Assembly: GCA_021432655.1 (NCBI GenBank)
Contig: MU271191.1
Location: 173,561 to 193,560 of the forward strand
Length of the DNA stretch: 20,000 nucleotides
Reading direction: 5' to 3'
Source: Atractiella rhizophila
Taxonomy: Eukaryota
Both the position numbers and the translations under genes were made by a program. Of the stretch, positions 1,235-12,450 are shown in pieces (position 1 is the first letter of the stretch; every line of letters starts with the position of its first letter). Below the pieces are notes generated by a model that worked only from the letters and a program-made list of their open reading frames with translations, did not search any database and was not told the DNA's origin.

Positions 1235-1762
1235 CATCTTGAAGAAAAAATCTGACTGGCCAGCGCCGATCAGGTCATCCTCTGCACCAGGCCGTAAGGG
1301 CTATGGTCAGTCCACATCAGTCATGGTATTATTATGATGGATGTAAGGACGGAAAATGATCAGAGCTTTGTCAGCGTTAAAGGGTCTTAGTATCAGAACC
1401 AAATCAGGAGATGATCAGACCACCAAATGCGCATCATCCGGCACTCATCAGACTTGCGCCAGATGCAAATCATGTTGGGATCACAACTCTGACATTAATC
1501 TGTCAGACACTGATCACCCAGCAGCTGGCTCCATCTGATTTCGATATTTTGTTTGTTTTCTTGTCCTTATTCCTGCGTGGTGCAATTAGCTACGTTACTA
1601 AAATCCTTATATTGCACGTCCTGCTACCGAAAGCCAATTTCATGGTGGTATTGATTACCGTTCCTCCCACTCCATTCTCAGAACTCCTCAGCTTGAAATT
1701 AAACCGATCATCTAATTCCAATCGATCACAGGAGCGGTCACATGGCTTAGTGGCGCGGAGGG
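1235..1762 (+). repeat. Orphan copy of the Plavaka element left end (528 bp direct repeat of 2862-3388)
   Basis: Manual alignment to 2862-3388 gives 24 substitutions plus 1 indel (~95% identity). Similarity begins exactly at CATCTTGAAGAAAAAATCTGACTGG in both copies and ends after TGGCGCGGAGGG. Confidence 0.92.
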
Positions 1763-2861
1763 AGGAGGCAATAAGCTGTCCGTTCGCTAAAATTTTAGGC
1801 TCCAGACGATCCATCCGCCGCTCCATGCCATCTTTTTTTCTTTTCAATGACGACAACCCCAACCTGAACAAGTGCTAGTTGCCAATGATAGAGACCACTG
1901 CTTTATGACTTGACATGTTGATTTTTCTACAAGACATCTGTCCTGCAAAAGAGCTGCCCTGTTCCCACCACGGTATGTCATGGCAAATTTTGGGAGTATT
2001 AGTAAATTTCACTTGTCTCTGGCTTGTACTTCAACGGGTAGAGAATTGTGTCCCCCTTCAATCGGCCGTGACTTGTTCCATTGATGCATTGTAAATAAGG
2101 TGAAAGCAAGAACCCGGCCGTAAACATGATTGTGTTGTGTCTCCTGTGTCAAGCTTTGAAGGAGAAAGGAGACAAGCAGATATTAAATCTAGATGTCTTG
2201 TTGCCTTACTGTCAGCCTGTCAGCAAAGTCTGAAGGTATAAGAATGTGCTATCTCCGTCATTGCCCTGAATGCATGGTAGAGCAATGTCGCAGAGCGAAG
2301 TTGGTCAATGTGCGCAAATCAGCGCACAGAACAGAAGTTTTTGTACTTGTTTGCGCTCGTTTGCGCCAAGCGGGAAAAATGCAAAGGGACATAGCCCATA
2401 CCTTTCTTCAATGTTATCTACGTCGTCTGAAATGGAAACGTACTCATGGGACTGTACTCAAAGAATAACGGAATGGCAACCAGTTTTTTACTGCTTCTCT
2501 TATGAAAGCTCCATCGTCACCATCCCCTGATTGATCCCAATGTGCATTGTGAGAGTTTCCCACTTCCAGCCCCCATCCTTTCTCCCCTTCCAATTCCACT
2601 GCCATAGCTAGACGGTAAATCCTATACCTCAATGTTGAAGCATGGGAAACCTACCAGGTAACAGCATGGGTATCAAACGTATGATCAGAACCCAGATGGA
2701 GTCAGTCTCAATGTGTTTTCTAGCCTGTACGCCTCATCTTGTCCACCAACATCATGAAAGACATATTGAATGTGCATCAAGCTAGGGTCATGTCCAACAT
2801 GAACAAAGAATTGTTCGATGTTTGCTCCACCAGAGATGTCGAATCCGGGTGCATTGAAGGA

Positions 2862-3170
2862 CATCTTGAAGAAAAAATCTGACTGGCCAGCGCCGATCAG
2901 GTCATCCTCTCCATCAGGCCGTAAGGCTATGGTCAGTCCGGATCAGTCATGGTATTATTATGATGGATGTAAGGGCGGAAAATGATCAGAGGTTTGTCAG
3001 CGTTAAAGGGTCTCAGTATCAGAACCGAATCAGGAGATGATCAGACCACCAAATGCGCATCATCTGGCACTCATCAGACTTGCTTCAGATGCAAATCACG
3101 TTGGGATCACAACTCTGACATTAATCTGTCAGACACTGATCATCCAGCAGCTGGCTCCATCTGATTTCGA
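2862..3170. repeat. Left terminal inverted repeat plus subterminal ATCAG/CTGAT repeat array
   Basis: Dense ATCAG/GTCAG/CTGAT cores in both orientations. Contains CCGATCAGGTCA (2893-2904), GATCAGTCA (2941-2949) and CCATCTGAT (3157-3165), all of which recur at the right end. Confidence 0.75.
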
Positions 3171-4364
3171 TATTTTGTTTGTTTTCTTGTCCTTATTCCT
3201 GCCTGGTGCAATTAACTACGTTACTAAAATCCTTACATTGCATGTCCTGCTACCGAAACCCAATTTTATGGTCGTATTGATTACCATTCCTCCCACTCCA
3301 TTCTCAGAACTCCTCAGCTTGAAATTAAACCGATCATCTAATTCCAATCGATCACAGGAGCGGTCGCACAGCTTAGTGGCGCGGAGGGGAACGTGATAGG
3401 GTTAACCGCTGTATATTGCTGGATGGGATGGATAGCTGGACTGCAAAGGAGCATTCCACCAGAGGTATCGGTCCAAGAGGTGCTAAAAGCTAGATAATCA
3501 GCATTTGGAGTGGAAGGGTTAGTAGATGAAATACATAAGACCTAATATGGTGAGAGGTTCAAAGGCGGATCTGTTGATATATCCTGCCAACTGCAAAAGG
3601 CTAGCCACAAGGCAATCTGTCTATTGAGCGGAAGAGGAAAATAGAGCAAAAAGGGACAAGTTATTTGATCAGAGCTAGATGCAATACACGAACATGTATT
3701 CATCAGCCACAATGCTGATCTGCTGAAAAGTGAAAGGCGGCTGACACCGACTGAGATACAGCCAAAGTTACCCAGTTCTACGAAAAAAAGCATGCTCATT
3801 TATATCACAAGTCATCATAAGCTCAAACGTAAGGGTATGAGATCAGCCACAGCAACTACCCCGCCACTTGGAGGTAAAACCACATACTTCATGTCAATAG
3901 GTTCGTCGACCTACCCCTTCCACCTACACCACCTTTCTTTGCCACCGAAGTATTTGACTGCTGATTATTCAAGCATGATAACCAAGAATAGTCATCTTGA
4001 GTTCAAATCAAAAGATCCGGTGTAATGGGGAGAGTTGGCGGAAAGCGCTAGGACGTTATACGAGTTATGGTCGAATTTTGGACAGCAAGAACCTTAGGGG
4101 TTAACTGCTCACCAGAGGGCCCCAGCGGTAAGCGTGAGGGACTTGCTTGTTTTACTAAAATAACGTGTCCATCTCCATCACAGCTCCCCTGCATTACAGT
4201 AACTCAAATTAGAAATGGAAGTTCGATAAAATGGGAGATATTGGACGGAGTGCTGAGCATGCATAGATGTTTGTGGGTTTAGTTCCTTGTCATGACTTAA
4301 ATTAAGACACTTGCAATTCATGGTCTATGCACAAGAATGTTCGTTGTATGTTAGAAGTGATCTA

Positions 4365-5850
4365 TTACTCTACATTCTCCCCACCTTGCTCCTCCATGAA
4401 ATCCATACCAAATCCATCCAAAATATCTTTATCGTCAGCAGTTTCGTCGCGTAAGGTAGTACCGTTGTCTCTTGCATCATCACGAGGGAATACTTCCCTG
4501 TTCCAGAGTTGTATGAGATGATGGAACTTGTCGGCATGTTGTCTCTGAAGGCTGTCGAGTAGTGTGACGGTGCGTTGAAAATGGTCCCGATAATTGTTCA
4601 CCTGTTGTGCATTTGGAAGGATTGGCACTCTTCCTTCGGCCGCAAAGATGGGGTCAGCGCTTAAGGCATAACGTGCCTACTTATCCTTGAGAATTGGTGT
4701 GAAGGGATAAATAAAGGAACGAACCAGAGTTGAGCAGTATGCCATCAGTGGAATTGTGATTTGGAAGATGGAAAGCTCTTTGCCGATTGTCGAAGCTCGA
4801 GCTTTCTCAGTTGTGCTATTGATGGCGGCCGGTCCATGAATGATGATGCGCGCCACCTAGTAACCTCAACAATAAACAATAAATCTCAGGTAATAATGAA
4901 GAGGCACCTTGAATAAAGCTGTAGATCGGAGATAGGCACCTGCTTTAACCGCCTTCTTATGTGCTTCACTGCAATGAGCAGGCAAATTGTACGGCGCGTA
5001 AAGATAGGTTTGCTCCTCTATGTGTTTATGAACTTCTTCATCTTCTTGGCGCTTTTTTGGGATCCTGAGTTCTACAGAGGAGGCAGTCTTGATGTCAAAA
5101 AAATCGTCAAAAGATCACGCATCCTCTTTGCATTGTCGCTTTTCTGTTCAGATATCCCTCGACAGACCTGCCACTGATTGTTAGAAGGATAAAGAGGTTT
5201 ATGAACGTGCCGACCTCTTTCTGAAACCACTCGCTATTATGCCATTCCAAAGCTTCTGGTGGGAGGCGGCCAAGGATGAACTTGACAAAGTTGGATTTGT
5301 AATATTGACCACAAACCTCCCACATCTGATTTCTTCTCTTCTTCTCCCTGATCTCATCCTCATCCTCATCCTCGCCCCATTCCTCATCATCTGAAACACC
5401 ATCAATCTCTCTGTCATCCTCGCACTCTGTAACCTCTGATCGTTGCAGGAAAATGTTTTCGAACCTCATCGCCCAAGGATGATACAAAAGGACAGATGCT
5501 TTTCCAGCGTGATATGCTTGGATCTTTGCTAGCCTAGTGGGTGCGGCAGGCATAACACGAGTAGAACGACGCCGTTTTGAGGGAGGTTCATTGCTGGCAA
5601 AGTGCACAGCTTCTTGCAGAGCAGCCAGTTGCTCTTGCAGTTGAGCACGCTCTTCTTCCCACTGCTGTCGTTCATCATCCCCCCTTGCTACAATGTTCTG
5701 AAGCAGACTGAGCTCTTTTCTTTCCTCGGCCAGCTATGCCTTGCCCTATAACCTTTCCTTTCATAATAAGAGAAGACGACGCACCTGAGCTTTTAACATA
5801 CTATACTTCCTCTTATAAGCTGTTCTTGTATTATTTTCTTGGTCTGACAT
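4365..5850 (-). CDS. DUF6698-like transposon-associated protein (~430 aa, 5 exons, one apparent frameshift)
   Basis: Exons 5850-5785, 5733-5215, 5167(or 5173)-4908, 4856-4725 and 4676-4365, all with GT-AG introns. N-terminus looks coiled-coil, followed by basic PPSKRRRS and an acidic tract. The C-terminal pattern YLRSTALFKVARIIIHGPAA...ITIPLMAYCSTLARYALSAD...NYRDHF...LIQLWNREVF resembles fungal DUF6698 as I recall it. Exon 3 needs one extra base, most simply in the A7 run at 5097-5103. Confidence 0.72.
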
Positions 5851-6057
5851 GATTCCGTCAGGCTTTCGGAAATATTGAGAAGGACCAGTAGTCACGTTGT
5901 TCAAGTGCAAGGAAAGCAGAAGGCATCAGCCTTTTCAAGCCCGCTGTGCCAAAGTAAACATTGTGACGTCATGCAACACGTCACGCGTCCATCAAAACAA
6001 CAACTTCCTCATTGTCTTTTCAGCTCTTTCTACATTTTCAGTGCTAGTTCGATTCAA
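5851..6057. promoter_or_regulatory. Putative bidirectional promoter of the two transposon genes
   Basis: 207 bp between divergent ATGs (5850 on -, 6058 on +). Contains GTAAACA (5954-5960), TGACGTCA (5964-5971) and ACGCGT (5983-5988). Confidence 0.5.
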
Positions 6058-9000
6058 ATGGCTCCTCGCTACACCAGAATCAATGCGATCAAGAAACTAC
6101 CAAGCAATCAAGTGGAATGCCCTGATTGCCATCAAGTCTTCTTGCATGCCAAAGGCGGGCTCAAGAAACATTGTGCGAGGCCAACATCCAATTGTTCCAC
6201 ATGCAGCAGGTTGGAAGGCGGTAAAAGTAGACGGAAGAATGGCAGGAAGGAATGAAGATGTGAGCATAATGCTGATTAAGCTAGGACGAGATGCTGAAGA
6301 GTTTTCAAGATAGAGCATATGAGCTCAGAATCAGACTTCTCAGAAGAACGAGAACATGGCATTGACACATCCCCATTCGCTGCCATGCAAGATAATCAAG
6401 GTCTGTCTGTGTTCTGATATTAAACCATTCGAAATCCAAAACAAGGTGATCTAATCGCTGAATCAAGGGCCAGATTTCGGCACCATCGTCAACCCTTGGC
6501 CTCTATGGAATTCTTCTCCCCATCTATCTACCTTAGGCAACAACTTATCATCCCTATCTCCGTCCAGCTTCAGTTCCAATGAGGATGAAGATGGAGATCT
6601 GAAAGAACATCTCGGCGGCCCATACTTCCAGTACCACCATCCAGATTCACATCATGACCGTCCATCTATCATACCCTTTGCTAGTGAAGTTCCAACTCTT
6701 CCTCCCTATCATCCATTCAAAAGCGAGATCGACTATGAAATGGCTGCCCATGCCTTTTTTCAAGGAATGACACAATCGGATACCACAGCATTTTTTCGGA
6801 ACCTCAAGAAACGTAGGCTCCCTGAATTCAGTTTAGATTCATTTAAGGATATGAGGGAGACATTAAGGAGGGACAAACGAAGTGTAACGGCCGGGGTGAG
6901 CTCATTTTAAAGCTATTTATGAGCTCTTACTAACGCAATCAACAGTTCCAACACCATATAGTTTCAGCGGAGTTAGAGAGCAAGACTATCAAGCATCATG
7001 TCTATATACGGGATCCTATCGAGATCATGAAAGAGGTGATCCACGACGATACTGTACGAGAGTCAATGCAGTTCTACCCAGTCAAGAAGTTCAAACAGAC
7101 TGAGGACGTTCCATGTCGCAATGTGAGAACTTATGATGAGCTGTGGACTACTAGGCGCTGCTGGAGATATCAGGTTCACATATTCTCTCGCATTCACATC
7201 AATTATATACTTACTAGTACTCCAGGATTCTCTTCCCAATCCAAATGGGTGTATCGGTGCAATCATCTTTTATACAGATGGAACAAGTGCCGTCAAGTTT
7301 GGACAGAAAACTGTGCATCCCATGTATATGTGGCTTGCAAATGTTCCACTTCGAGAGAGGAGTAGTGACAGTAAAGGAGGGTGCCAACTCATTGGATTTC
7401 AACCCGAAGTAAGCAAGCTTCAAGTTATCCTTGCTCCTCTGAGGTACTGACCACGAAATATTTAGATTGTTGGCACGGATAAGCAAAAGAAGGACAAAAA
7501 ATTCCGGCTGTACAAGCGTTCGGTATACCACAAAGTCATTGGTATTGTCTTGAAGGGCATTCATCGATATGAACATGTAGGGTTCAAGGTGCAAGTCGGC
7601 CACTCCTTCAACAAGTTGATATTCCCGCGTATTTTCATGCTGCAGGCTGATATGGCTGAGTTGTGAGAACTGCTTTACTTTGATAAAACATCTACTTACC
7701 GGTTTCCAGATACACCCTCCTATTGCTACTCGGCATTGGGTCTGAATTTCGCTGTCCAATCTGCCTTGCTCCCAAAGGAGAGCTTCACAACCTCTCACGC
7801 CAGTTTTTTAAACGCAGTCAGAAACAGGTTCGACGTGACCTTTTTCGATATGAAGAGACACAAGCCGAAAGCGGGACAGTTGCAGCGGCAAAGGAACTAA
7901 CGAGCCGGTCTTCCCTTCGGCCTGAGAAGGTATGTGGTTGCCTGCTTGAGCCTTTGTCATAACTTGAAAGCTGAAATGCTTGGCCAGTCCGCTTTCAGCA
8001 GACTGGAATGTACCGATATCTACAATTGCATTGCTGCTGATCCATTGCACGTTTTTGGTGGTTTGTACAAAGATCACGTCATGTGTAAGCTCTTTGAGAA
8101 ACTTTTAAACTCGCAGAAGGAGAAAATTGACTCGGAGTAAGTTACTTTCGACCTTTCACATTTACTGAGAGCTTGTTTCGACAGCCTCAGTTCACTACCA
8201 ACATTTGGTTCACTGCGCCACGTTTCAAAACGTGGCCTAACAAACTTAGAGAGTTTTACCTGCATGGAGATTCAAGATGCAATGAAGGCACGTAATCTCT
8301 CTACTGTGCTGGTATGGATATCAAGTTTTACCACAGTCTTTAATCGTTGGCATGATTGGGATTCTTCCGGCTGAGCTTGAGCAAGAAGCTGTTCCAGCCC
8401 TACGAGACCTGGTAGCTTTCGAGGTGATCGTAAAGATGCACGTTCAAGACGAAGACAGAATCCTTGTGCTTCGACAGGAGAAGCTCGTAGCTGTTGAAAG
8501 GGCTTTGAAGGTTTGTCTTGTCCTTCTTCTCACACCATACTTTTTGTTTAGTTGACATGACAGACTCTGAGCGAACATTTCGGAATGTCTACAACGTTCC
8601 CAAAAGGACATCTACCCCCACACTTTGTTGACCTCATCGCTGAGGGTGGAACCTTGGACCATCAAACGACAGCCCATGGTGAACGATCCCACCGTCCACT
8701 GAAAGAGCACATCATTGCTCGAGTGCTTCATAGCAACATAGCGGGGAGACGGAGCTATCAGTAAGCAGCCATTCAAACATTCATGTTTCGCACTTTGCAG
8801 AATGCTGACCTGTGACACGATACTGTGTTAGATGGCTCAACGTGCGTTCGAAATGATGCAACTTCAAGCCATTGGCCGCCGCATCGAAGCAGCAAAACTT
8901 GCTCAAGGGAGTAGTTGCGAGAACGAGCGAGCAATTCCACACAAAAGGCAAGGCTCCATTGAACGCTCCGGTTTGTGCGGCGAGTCGAGGACCTTTCATG

Positions 9001-9617
9001 TTCAGACTTACTTTGACAAGTTATCCACTGAATTCGAAACACATCAGGACCTTGCAACGGACCTCCGTCTTTTCCTGCTCCAACTTCTAGATCCTTCAGC
9101 TCCGGCACGGGTGCGCCAGGAGCGATTGCCTCAGATTGACAATTCTACGGTTTTCTTCCTTACATCATCCTCACGCTTTTGCTGGCTAACTTCGGGTATT
9201 CAGGTTCAAGACTTCACCCTCTTCCGCTGTCCATTCACTTCGTTTGTCGATCAAAGGATATACGAAGATTACCTTCGATGTCACCCCAATTGGCAGAAGA
9301 AAGCGCCGCGATACGACGACGCTATTCTGCAAAATAAGGATGGCACAATTTCATTTGCGCGGCTTGTTCGATTACTTTCTTGTTGCGTTGAAGGGAATGA
9401 GTTTCATATCATTGTCTTCCGCGAGTACACTTGGATTGGTAGGCACCAGGTTTCTGGTATGCCCTTTGTGCATGGTGGAGATCGGTTTAGCTTTGGTATC
9501 ACGGACAACATTGTGCGAGGCTGCTACGTTCAGCCAGACCCTGTTGAACATACATTTTATCACATCAATGATCTTGCTGAGGCGGATTTATTTTTAGGCT
9601 TAGAACGCCTCTTGTGA
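6058..9617 (+). CDS. Plavaka transposase (~970 aa, ~13 exons; one clear and one probable frame disruption)
   Basis: Introns at 6260-6309, 6401-6467, 6896-6945, 7174-7225, 7409-7465, 7663-7709, 7930-7987, 8137-8184, 8288-8336 (GC-AG), 8511-8563, 8761-8831 and 9150-9203. Motifs: N-terminal Zn finger CPDC...GLKKH...C; PYHPFKSEIDYEMA; YIRDP; YDELWT; IIFYTDGT...FGQKTVHPMYMWLANVP..ER....GGCQLIGFQP; QADMAE; CPIC; DPLH; FPKGH...H...GERSH; DYLRCHPNW...RYD. Exon 8564-8760 is one base short of phase. The 6173-6259 junction is unresolved. Confidence 0.9.
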
Positions 9618-9619
9618 AG

Positions 9620-9847
9620 TTAGTTATCATCTCACATTACTGATGTTGACCGCTATGGATAGTATTCCACATTTAGTAGATGAACTTTTACATATGTAGT
9701 GATCACCATCTGATCAATGCCCATCTGATGAAACCAGCTTATCAGTCGCGTATCACCTCCATTTGAGCTCCGATCAGGTCAAGTTCAACCCGTGCCAGCC
9801 ACCAGCATCCGTCAGGCGGTGATCAGTCAACAAAGATTTTCGTGATG
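9620..9847. repeat. Right subterminal repeat array plus terminal inverted repeat
   Basis: CCATCTGAT at 9706-9714 and 9721-9729, CCGATCAGGTCA at 9770-9781, GATCAGTCA at 9821-9829; ends TTTTCGTGATG at 9847. Confidence 0.72.
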
Positions 9848-10359
9848 GAGGAACTGCTCGAAATGCATATACACGTTGGTTCTGTCGCAAAGTCCAATGA
9901 GCTTCTAATACCTGAGCCGACTCCCACTGCACACTCTCTATCCTCCTCCTAGTGGTCGAGAGACACATGATTCCCTTCAAATCATCTCTTGGATCCTCAA
10001 AGTCCAACACAAGGCTCTTTCCGTGGCGGGAACAGGAGATAAGCGTGGTGCGACCTTTCAACGAGTTTGCATTGATGTCAACGGCGCTAGGTGGTCTGGC
10101 GTTTGCATGGTGCTTATCCGCCCTCCTCACGCCTTTGTCAAGGAATAATCCTCAGCTCAGTTTCAACACCTTCTCCTATGCAGTCTCGCTAGTGTTACTT
10201 TCCTCTGATGAGGAATAACTAACGGATAAACTCTGGGAACCGAACCGCCTCAGGCAGTAGGACGTAGGTACGATTATGATCATTGTATTCTAACTGTGCA
10301 TGCCGCAAGAGTGCAGATGAATTCGAAGATTCCTCGGAAGGGGAGGCGAGCTTTGTGAG

Positions 10360-12450
10360 ATGTTATCCGTCGAACCCGACACAGACGACGAAGGAGAGAG
10401 TAGCACGGCGGCTACCTCGCTCGATACCTTGGTTCAGCAGAAACAGTATGCTCCTTTCGTGAATGGGGTGTTTGGTGGAAAGTTGAATAGTTTCATCATT
10501 TGCGATGAGTGCAAACATGTCAGTTCTTCCAGTTGTGCACGATGTGAAACTGAGGACGGGACAGATTTCGATGACTCAAGAAGACTTCTTTGGTATCTCT
10601 CTGCCCCTCAAATCCGACGAGAGCAAACTTCGAAAGGTCCGTATTCGTCTATCACCAGTCTGCTTGGCTGATATTGTTCATCGTCTACGCAGAGAGACAA
10701 GCTCCGTCGCTCTTTGCAGGGCAACTTCTTCAACTCTAAAGCGAAGATCGAAGCCGCAAAGAAAAACGAGAACATTGCCGTCGTGCGTCCAGCCGTGAAG
10801 AGGCAACAATCCATCTCTTTATCCGACGCCTCTGCTTCCCCCTCCACTTCCGAAGCCGAGTCAGATCAGTCTCCCATAGACTCCAAGCTCTCCCGTCGGC
10901 GCTCTCTCGACCCTGCTCACCTACGGAGCGGGAAGAAGCAGGAGAAAACGGGAGAGAAGACCCCTCGGGACCTTTCTCCTTCCCGCTTGGGAGGTTTGGG
11001 GAGGAGCATCTCTGTGCGCAGTAAGGGAGAGAAAGAGAGAGAGAAGCCACCGGCTGTTAAAGTAAGCAGGGAACAACAGGCATACATCAAGACCCTTTTG
11101 ACCGAGGTTCCCGCACCTTCTCCTATTGCTGGCCTCCGTTGGTCGACCCCACACGGTGCAGTAGGAGGATCGAATCCTACGGTTTTGGTTGATCCTGGAG
11201 TGCAAAAGGTGGATCAGTCGAACACAGGATTGTACGAATGTTTGAGGATGTTCACCCAGGTGGAAGACTTGGACGAGGCGAACCTATTTGCTTGCGAGAA
11301 TTGTTGGAAAATGACCCATCGGAAGAAACACAAAGATCAGAAGAAGAGGAGGGAGGCGATAGAACAGGCCGCGAAGGCAAGATCCGCAGAACCCTCTCCA
11401 GCACTATCTGTTGGCGGCTCCCTTATGAACGCTCTTAGCCGAAGTACGGAATCTCTGCCCCTCCATGCTCCTAAAAGGTCCGGGACTATCACAAGCCAAT
11501 CGAGTCATAGGAGGGCGAGTGAGAAAGAGGAAACCTCCTCGATCAAGGAACTGGTTGCAAGCGGGATGCGTATGGCTGCCGTCTCGAGCCCTTCCTTAGC
11601 CTCTTCAATTGGGAAGGAAGGTACGACGGACGAGAGCGATGCGTCTTCCCTGAATGATATCTCGGACCCTCCTCACTCCGCCAAGTCTACTACGACCTCG
11701 ATCAATGTCGAGTATGTTGATGATACAACATTGCCTCCAGTTTCCAGAACGGATACGGTTGCCTCATTTGTCAGCGATGACGAACCGAGTTTGAAAGCGG
11801 GAGATCCAGAATCCATTTCATCATCGCCCGGTAACATCAATGATCCACTTCCTTCACCTGCCCATTCAGCAACCTCGCTCGCTTCCTCCATTTCTTTTGC
11901 CACAGACACCGCTCCCCCTAGACCCCTTTCCAAGCCTAAAGGTCCGAAGTACATCCTCCGGAAAGCAAAGAAACGATACCTCATCGACCCCCACCAACTT
12001 CCACCTGTGCTGATTTTGCACTTCAAGCGGTTTTCCCAGTCCTCAAGGACTCTGTTTTCCGGGAACTTCTCCACGCTGAAGAAGAGGGACGACGAAGTGA
12101 GTTTCCCAGAAATCCTCGACCTCGCCCCATTCCTAGCGCCTTGGGGTCGACCTCCAAAGTATAAGGAGGAGTCGCGCGGTCTTCATCTCCACCTTCCTCA
12201 CCTAAGCGATTCATCCTCTTCGCTCCCAAATGTTCGAAGTAAATATCAGCTTACTGGAGTGGTCGTACATCTCGGCTCTACCCTTGGTGGAGGACACTAC
12301 GTTTCGTATAACCTCACGTCACGCGTGAAGAGCAAGAGCGGGAAACCGGAAAGGAGATGGGTTTATTGTTCGGACGAGAAGATCACACCTACGACCATCT
12401 CGGAGGTTCTGAAGGCGAAGGCCTACTTGTTATTCTATGAGAAGATATAA
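10360..12450 (+). CDS. Ubiquitin-specific protease (peptidase C19, USP16/USP45-like), 5'-truncated in this window
   Basis: Spliced via introns 10519-10564 and 10637-10692. Motifs: PFVNGVFGGKLNSFIICDECKH|ISMTQEDFFGISLP; LYECLRMFTQVEDLD...FACENC; LPPVLILHFKRF; VSFPEILDLAPF; His box YQLTGVVVHLG...GGGHYVSY; WVYCSDE; AYLLFYEKI*. No Cys box is visible. The start coordinate is only the first in-frame ATG. Confidence 0.88.

Follow-up and report, generated by a model that had tools for sequence, protein, structure and literature searches.

A transposon with PlavakaB-type ends and a divergent DUF6698 gene in the genome of Atractiella rhizophila

The DNA analysed here (the window) is a stretch of 20,000 nucleotides, C12:173561-193560 of the 51.5-Mb, 1,998-contig genome of Atractiella rhizophila, a member of Pucciniomycotina; all positions below are in window numbering. 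Between 2862 and 9847 it carries an element which is complete in its boundaries and is a real end-to-end transposon, while its coding part is not intact. It is very probably a cut-and-paste transposon that belongs to PlavakaB, within the CMCT clade, and that duplicated 2 bp on insertion into another repeat, hereafter the host repeat. The family it represents is specific to its host and of a kind already published, PlavakaB; modestly new are the Pucciniomycotina host and the pairing of the transposase gene with a gene for a DUF6698 protein, the partner. The original prediction, made from the sequence alone, had proposed a complete two-gene Plavaka element with CATC termini and a GA duplication; its claims are taken up below with the results bearing on them. 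The features of the element are the following.

2862..9847, + strand: DNA transposon, very probably of PlavakaB type, both ends present, 6,986 bp; the copy on C1 has the same two ends
2860..2861, + strand: left copy of the target-site duplication, GA; single GA in 5/5 paralogous empty sites
9848..9849, + strand: right copy of the target-site duplication, GA; single GA in the paralogous empty sites
2862..3141, + strand: left end, CATCT terminus, imperfect inverted repeat of ~30 bp; GATCAG at 2895, 2941, 2984, 3039, and 3136
9710..9847, - strand: right end, reading inward CATCACGAAAA; GATCAG at 9710, 9772, and 9821
6058..9617, + strand: Plavaka transposase gene, 13 modelled exons, 967 amino acids with X at two breaks; PF18759
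5851..6057, no strand: gap of 207 bp between the two start codons, presumed to be a shared bidirectional promoter
4365..5850, - strand: partner gene, exons 5850-5785, 5733-5215, 5167-4908, 4856-4725, and 4676-4365; N-terminal coiled coil, acidic linker, and DUF6698
3217..3890, - strand: putative spliced, polyadenylated RNA of the left arm without a long open reading frame (ORF); intron 3483-3887

The element spans CATCT...TGATG with GA flanking it on either side. The left junction reads ...GCATTGAAGGA and then, from 2862, CATCTTGAAG, while the right one reads TTTTCGTGATG up to 9847, followed by GAGGAACTGCTCG. A genome search with window positions 2800-9900 found five other loci matching solely 62 bp of the left flank, and all five (two on C157, two on C109, and one on C51) are empty sites of the form GCATTGAAG-GA-GGAACTG, with one GA. 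These loci, two tandem pairs among them, correspond to three separate places and are paralogous copies of the host repeat, not orthologous alleles. Contigs from the DNA sequencing runs X1 and X2 also bridge the insertion site; these runs may come from the source sample, and the same paralogues are seen in them. A second full copy of the element, C1:246039-253196 (7,158 bp, ~75% identical in the coding parts), reads TG, then CATCA...GTGATG, then TG again. Its junctions therefore define a GATG end plus a 2-bp duplication, and exclude a 3-bp GGA duplication with a GAT end, which is compatible with the window alone. In this way the exact CATC..GATG ends, the 2-bp GA duplication, and the single-GA empty site, all foreseen in the original prediction, are borne out.

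A search of the genome found the end pattern 15 times and its reversed control 0 times. Tabulation of the flanking dinucleotides, proposed earlier as a check, is possible for six two-ended copies: the window (GA/GA), C1 (TG/TG), C487 (TA/TA), C465 (GT/GT), C203 (GG/GG), and C200 (AA/AC). A 2-bp duplication thus accompanies five of the six, which by our arithmetic, at 1/16 each, has a chance of ~5e-6. The close family comprises only the window and C1 copies among these, the other four belonging to sister families with ~65% DNA identity. One-ended copies have a common start position and unrelated flanks, with one base changed in three of them. GA as a preferred target was rejected in view of TG, TA, GT, and GG in the other copies, so the 2-bp duplication is sequence-independent and not specific to GA, as the wording of the original prediction might suggest it to be.

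The inverted ends are imperfect, with ungapped matches of 4/4, 8/11, and 17/30, and do not appear among the 25 longest inverted pairs in a repeat search of the window. The subterminal motif GATCAG, counted on either strand, occurs five times in the left 400 bp, three times in the right 300 bp, and six times in the middle 6,286 bp; this roughly tenfold enrichment is descriptive, since the motif was picked post hoc with the ends already viewed. Both the imperfect inverted ends and the shared subterminal motifs were part of the original prediction and are confirmed by these counts.

PlavakaB was defined by CATCA..TGATG termini and 2- or 3-bp duplications, with published consensus sequences (Kojima 2025, Biology 14:1741, PMC12730594). 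In the same paper PlavakaA is given TGT..ACA ends and a 2-bp duplication, and fungal EnSpm CAC..GTG ends and a 3-bp duplication. The PlavakaB lineage, of the CMCT clade, is related to EnSpm/CACTA and Transib/RAG1. In the element described here the right end is exactly TGATG, its terminal 11 nt being identical to those of PlavakaB-1_AuSu, and the duplication lies in the 2- to 3-bp range, while the copies on C1, C200, C487, and C465 have the consensus CATCA at both ends. PlavakaA shares the transposase family and the 2-bp duplication but differs in its ends, TGT..ACA there and CATC..GATG here. Fungal EnSpm/CACTA does not fit either, the element having CAT..ATG ends and a 2-bp duplication, nor does ESTA with its TA-specific duplication, in view of GA, TG, TA, GT, and GG. 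The placement in PlavakaB versus PlavakaA is made from the ends only, not from a tree with reference transposases.

The published Plavaka families were reported from Agaricomycotina, and of Pucciniomycotina it is said only that no TET-bearing ones were found; the word Atractiella is absent from the available text and supplement of that paper (PMC12730594). A literature search on Atractiella transposons returned nothing on topic by title. Some fungal Plavaka elements carry TET/JBP cargo (PMC12730594), whereas none was recognised in the window copy, with no Pfam match in the scanned ORFs (some short exons lay outside the scan) and no long ORF in the left arm. The second gene here codes for a DUF6698 protein, a domain mentioned in neither the available text of PMC12730594 nor its supplement. 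The earlier opinion that Plavaka is mostly described at the protein level has to be abandoned, as the ends, duplications, and consensus sequences of PlavakaB are already in print. The suggestion of an uncatalogued family survives only in the sense that this host-specific family is not listed in PMC12730594, its kind being already defined as PlavakaB.

The transposase assignment made earlier was confirmed by a profile scan, in which two exons exceeded the curated PF18759 cut-off of 26.3 bits, at 34.4 and 27.3 bits; the annotated product of the locus, P0005, scores 127.3 bits (E=1e-36). The 13-exon model contains no stop besides two frameshift breaks; when the gene is aligned with the C1 copy, the exons prove conserved and the introns, of 47-71 nt, diverged. 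Along the model follow an N-terminal CPDC..H (CxxC..H zinc-finger-like) motif, YTDG with D334, ADMAE with D439, CPIC with C458/C461, DPLH, HLPPH with H674/H678, and HGERSH with E698. This order of D, D, C(2)C, H(3)H, and E agrees with the Plavaka/CMCT description (PMC12730594), the residues being assigned from known Plavaka motifs read in the sequence and not from an alignment with Figure 4 of that paper. The frame is not the uninterrupted one of an autonomous element. One base is extra near 6179, compared with all four covering copies, and one is missing near 8743, compared with all four close copies. The first break falls after ~40 codons and the second past the catalytic E, removing the C-terminal quarter, so the window copy has no full-length transposase. 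The C1 copy carries its own frameshift near the E motif, and no copy could be called intact among the subset inspected. Genome-wide, PF18759 gives 53 exon matches on 29 contigs, and more distant Plavaka families lie on C343, C262, C37, C169, C119, C160, and C189.

Both element genes are spliced in one public run, X3. The kind of this run is unrecorded and it is regarded as complementary DNA (cDNA) only from GT..AG joints and a poly-T end; it gives no cover at ~8250-9580, and its contigs yield neither strand nor expression level. X3 contigs skip four modelled transposase introns (6260-6309, 6401-6467, 6896-6945, and 7174-7225), the first partner intron, and one host-gene intron, nearly all joints being GT..AG, while these joints were not seen for X1/X2 among the matches listed. 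An additional in-frame GT..AG joint of 45 nt in X3, 7054-7098 within transposase exon 4, would entail the loss of 15 conserved residues; it is probably due to cryptic splicing, its acceptor not being present in the C1 copy. In the left arm, X3 has a loose end of poly-T at 3217 together with a CT..AC joint of 405 nt (3482-3888), at a contig depth of ~220; the depth at the two genes is 11-26, a measure by which genes cannot be ranked. These data suggest a spliced, polyadenylated RNA, which would be either an extended 3' untranslated region of the partner gene or non-coding, and which could stem from another copy. The variable part of the family is the arm that separates the left end from the partner gene. 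In the C1 copy the left arm is unalignable with window positions 3400-4350 and ~470 bp of the partner gene are absent.

The two genes stand head-to-head, as originally described, with 207 bp between their ATG codons, and a block immediately upstream of the transposase ATG is kept in the C1 copy. DUF6698 (PF20414) is a Pfam family without a described function. The annotated partner protein, P0001, matches it with E=1.7e-13, and P0003, P0004, and all six distant relatives (25-35% identity) also exceed the curated cut-off of PF20414. Partner exon 3 has 260 nt and is one base short near 5114 compared with sister-family copies, which makes a 1-bp frameshift there probable. P0001 has 413 amino acids against 429 expected in frame, 16 fewer, a shortfall that would fit a spurious annotated intron over the frameshift. 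The completeness claimed earlier therefore applies to the extent of the element and not to its coding part, with two 1-bp frameshifts in the transposase gene and probably one in the partner gene.

Within the Atractiella rhizophila genome, in which the pairing of the two genes was followed, P0001 matches 14 loci, 11 of them head-to-head with transposase DNA. The pairing holds across families just ~51% identical in the transposase, with the partner proteins 44-58% identical. A PF20414 profile search of the genome gave one match, being insensitive on short exons. The models of the partner and of P0022, a distant relative, are of low confidence (mean pLDDT, predicted local distance difference test score, 57 and 60) and reveal no more than a long N-terminal helix (3-68 in the partner) and an all-helical C-terminal domain. 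Structural matches of the full-length model are generic coiled coils over residues 1-73 only (best Z 6.8, root-mean-square deviation (rmsd) 1.4-4.1, 71-73 residues aligned). The P0022 model reaches a best Z of 4.6 (rmsd 3.7-4.9, 95-113 aligned), with CRISPR small subunits recurring weakly, and gives no Foldseek match at E<=0.001; a sequence search of the PDB with the partner found nothing better than E 0.24. The fold searches give no evidence of a new fold. Pfam scans recognised no DNA-binding domain in the partner and no sequence similarity of its DUF6698 to TnpA, and no paper on DUF6698 or its link to Plavaka was found in a literature search that did not cover Repbase, where a second gene may be noted. 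In one two-ended copy of 9.4 kb, the 3' exons of the partner gene (C465:20143-22369, L029/L051) are duplicated in tandem within the gene (P0002, 660 amino acids). On C6, 3 kb from a distant DUF6698 gene, lies a 1,017-aa ORF (4489-7542, L097) with protease- and integrase-like motifs which we take to be typical of a Copia-type retrotransposon.

By the mechanism we propose, both genes would be transcribed outwards from the 207-bp gap, acting as a promoter. The transposase, of the DDE type, would bind the CATC ends and excise the element, joining to a target would occur with a 2-nt stagger, and repair would leave a 2-bp duplication of any sequence. Excision and integration follow the established chemistry of DDE transposases. 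The window copy is non-autonomous; keeping its ends and having no full-length transposase, it would be mobile only if another copy supplied the proteins.

Several observations weigh against the reading of the element as PlavakaB with a helper protein of its own. The left end is CATCT, matching the consensus CATCA in four of five positions, although CATCT also starts PlavakaB-1_GyCo. The C200 copy, with two ends, has flanks AA/AC and no duplication. Three of the 14 partner loci have no adjacent transposase, one on C637 with an element end only, one on C204 where none was found, and one at the contig start of C6, while many other, more distant Plavaka loci have no P0001 match at the search sensitivity used. 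What was seen for the partner is linkage and motif enrichment, not DNA binding, and TnpA arises by alternative splicing, not from a divergent gene. For the boundaries, coincidence would draw on the weakness of the inverted ends and on the 1/16 chance of a single 2-bp match, but its probability is negligible in the face of the empty sites, the duplications in five of six copies, and independent copies with the same terminal bases and unrelated flanks. A new Plavaka lineage confined to Pucciniomycotina, neither A nor B, in which B-like ends are combined with a distinct transposase and with DUF6698 as partner, could be proposed from the PF18759 score, lower than in other families of the genome, and from a short query that retrieved only six close homologues, all from the same organism. 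That search, however, was word-limited, with nine candidates, and the ends and duplication length match PlavakaB exactly, down to the consensus CATCA start of four copies and the 11 nt shared with PlavakaB-1_AuSu, so a new lineage is improbable. Still less probable is that the frameshifts are assembly errors and the window copy intact and autonomous. It is true that each of the three breaks falls within a short homopolymer run and that the X3 partner contig, ~99% identical, has 391 letters between 4675 and 5212, apparently in frame, versus 390 in the spliced window model (by our arithmetic). This contig probably reflects an in-frame partner copy expressed in the X3 sample, whereas a 476-nt DNA contig of X1/X2 spans 4797-5272 with 0 gaps. 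At 8742, the extra base is present in only part of the depth (195.5/263 and 300.7/416.4 in the runs X1 and X2), so the short form exists in these reads; the break near 6179 is not visible among the X1/X2 matches listed. Since X1/X2 may be the source sample, this is a test of the assembly and not of the population.

The role of the partner is more evenly balanced. The fixed head-to-head linkage is the reason to think that the DUF6698 protein serves the element, and we incline slightly to regard it as an element-encoded helper. That it is instead passive cargo captured from the host genome, or a factor that acts on chromatin or against silencing and stands outside the transposition machinery, is a serious alternative, to which we give a little under even chances. 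Cargo is known in Plavaka, TET/JBP in fungi (PMC12730594) and three accessory genes in red algae (10.1101/2025.02.11.637652), and the partner has no recognisable DNA-binding domain; against cargo speak the head-to-head arrangement at 11 of 14 loci and the 44-58% protein identity across families. Nor was a non-transposon host copy of the partner identified, the C6 and C204 loci being ambiguous. By analogy with En/Spm, our leading but tentative guess for the helper is a function like that of TnpA: it would bind the subterminal motifs that contain GATCAG and hold the two ends together by means of its coiled coil. A function in regulation or as cargo has much the same probability. The broader idea that Plavaka is a two-component system, in which DUF6698 would be a hitherto unrecognised second protein common to PlavakaA and PlavakaB across basidiomycete subphyla, a helical and possibly new-fold analogue of TnpA that binds GATCAG-type motifs and pairs the ends by its coiled coil, is speculative and rather doubtful.

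Compared with known systems, the element resembles En/Spm (CACTA; TnpD and TnpA) in its related transposase clade, short terminal repeats, repeated subterminal motifs, and two element proteins (PMC2613891). It differs in that TnpA is produced by alternative splicing of one transcript (PMC2613891) and the second protein here by a divergent gene, as well as in the ends and duplication, CACTA and 3 bp there versus CATC..GATG and 2 bp here. A literature search found no paper on TnpA-type subterminal binding in fungal CACTA elements. The giant red-algal Plavaka elements likewise combine a transposase with accessory genes within defined ends, but are 17-19 kb long and carry three such genes (methylase/SET and ParB/2OG oxygenase), none of which was recognised here; only TET/JBP had previously been reported as a fungal accessory gene (bioRxiv 10.1101/2025.02.11.637652).

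Nothing is overturned by these results, and the window copy itself is broken. They add a PlavakaB family with well-defined boundaries and known empty sites, found in a subphylum not among the hosts in the available text of PMC12730594, and indicate that some, at least, of the DUF6698 genes annotated in fungi as coding for 'hypothetical proteins' belong to transposons. Should the two-component idea be true, this compact 7-kb family would be a minimal system for testing DUF6698 as a TnpA analogue. If the partner were needed for transposition, an uncharacterised Pfam family would gain a function, with a bearing on how RAG/EnSpm-related transposases recruit helpers.

The first 10 kb of the window are a nest of repeats, which besides the element includes the following two features and further dispersed repeats at 1-440 (>15 matches elsewhere) and 710-1234.

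1235..1762, + strand: second, one-ended copy, a 528-bp left-end fragment, 95% identical, meeting the host repeat at a GGAGG overlap
1764..2859, resuming at 9850 to ~10375, no strand assigned: host repeat, the insertion target; copies on C157, C143, C137, C109, and C51

The fragment aligns with 2862-3388 over its 528 bp and begins with the same CATC, as noted in the original prediction, which had taken it for a second copy. Its left flank has paralogues on C103 and C94 that match up to exactly 1234 and then diverge, so it has a true left end. A second full element or a short non-autonomous element was rejected, there being no right end or right flank in the window or in the genome search; the expected right flank was found neither in the window nor elsewhere on C12 in the search result. 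Loss of the right end by deletion is the simplest reading. At its junction with the host repeat (1762/1764) there is a short GGAGG overlap, and other copies of the host repeat have CACG or CACA as their start, some four bases before this point. The host repeat, of which copies also occur on C5 and C1102, is unclassified; it is tandem on C157 and has near-identical 922-bp parts on C143 and C137. Possibly it is a non-autonomous, EnSpm-like element with a CAC terminus. In two close copies of the transposon, L015 (C81, near 70073) and L016 (C5, near 212761), the right end is missing from almost the same subterminal point onwards, and the sequence that follows resembles the beginning of the host repeat, a possible sign that the two element types have nested repeatedly. 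Downstream, positions 10371-12450 contain a gene for a ubiquitin-specific protease (PF00443), of which C672 has a copy with 97% identity. At 10371 its upstream part is swapped mid-exon for the host repeat, making it a 5'-truncated allele or paralogue.

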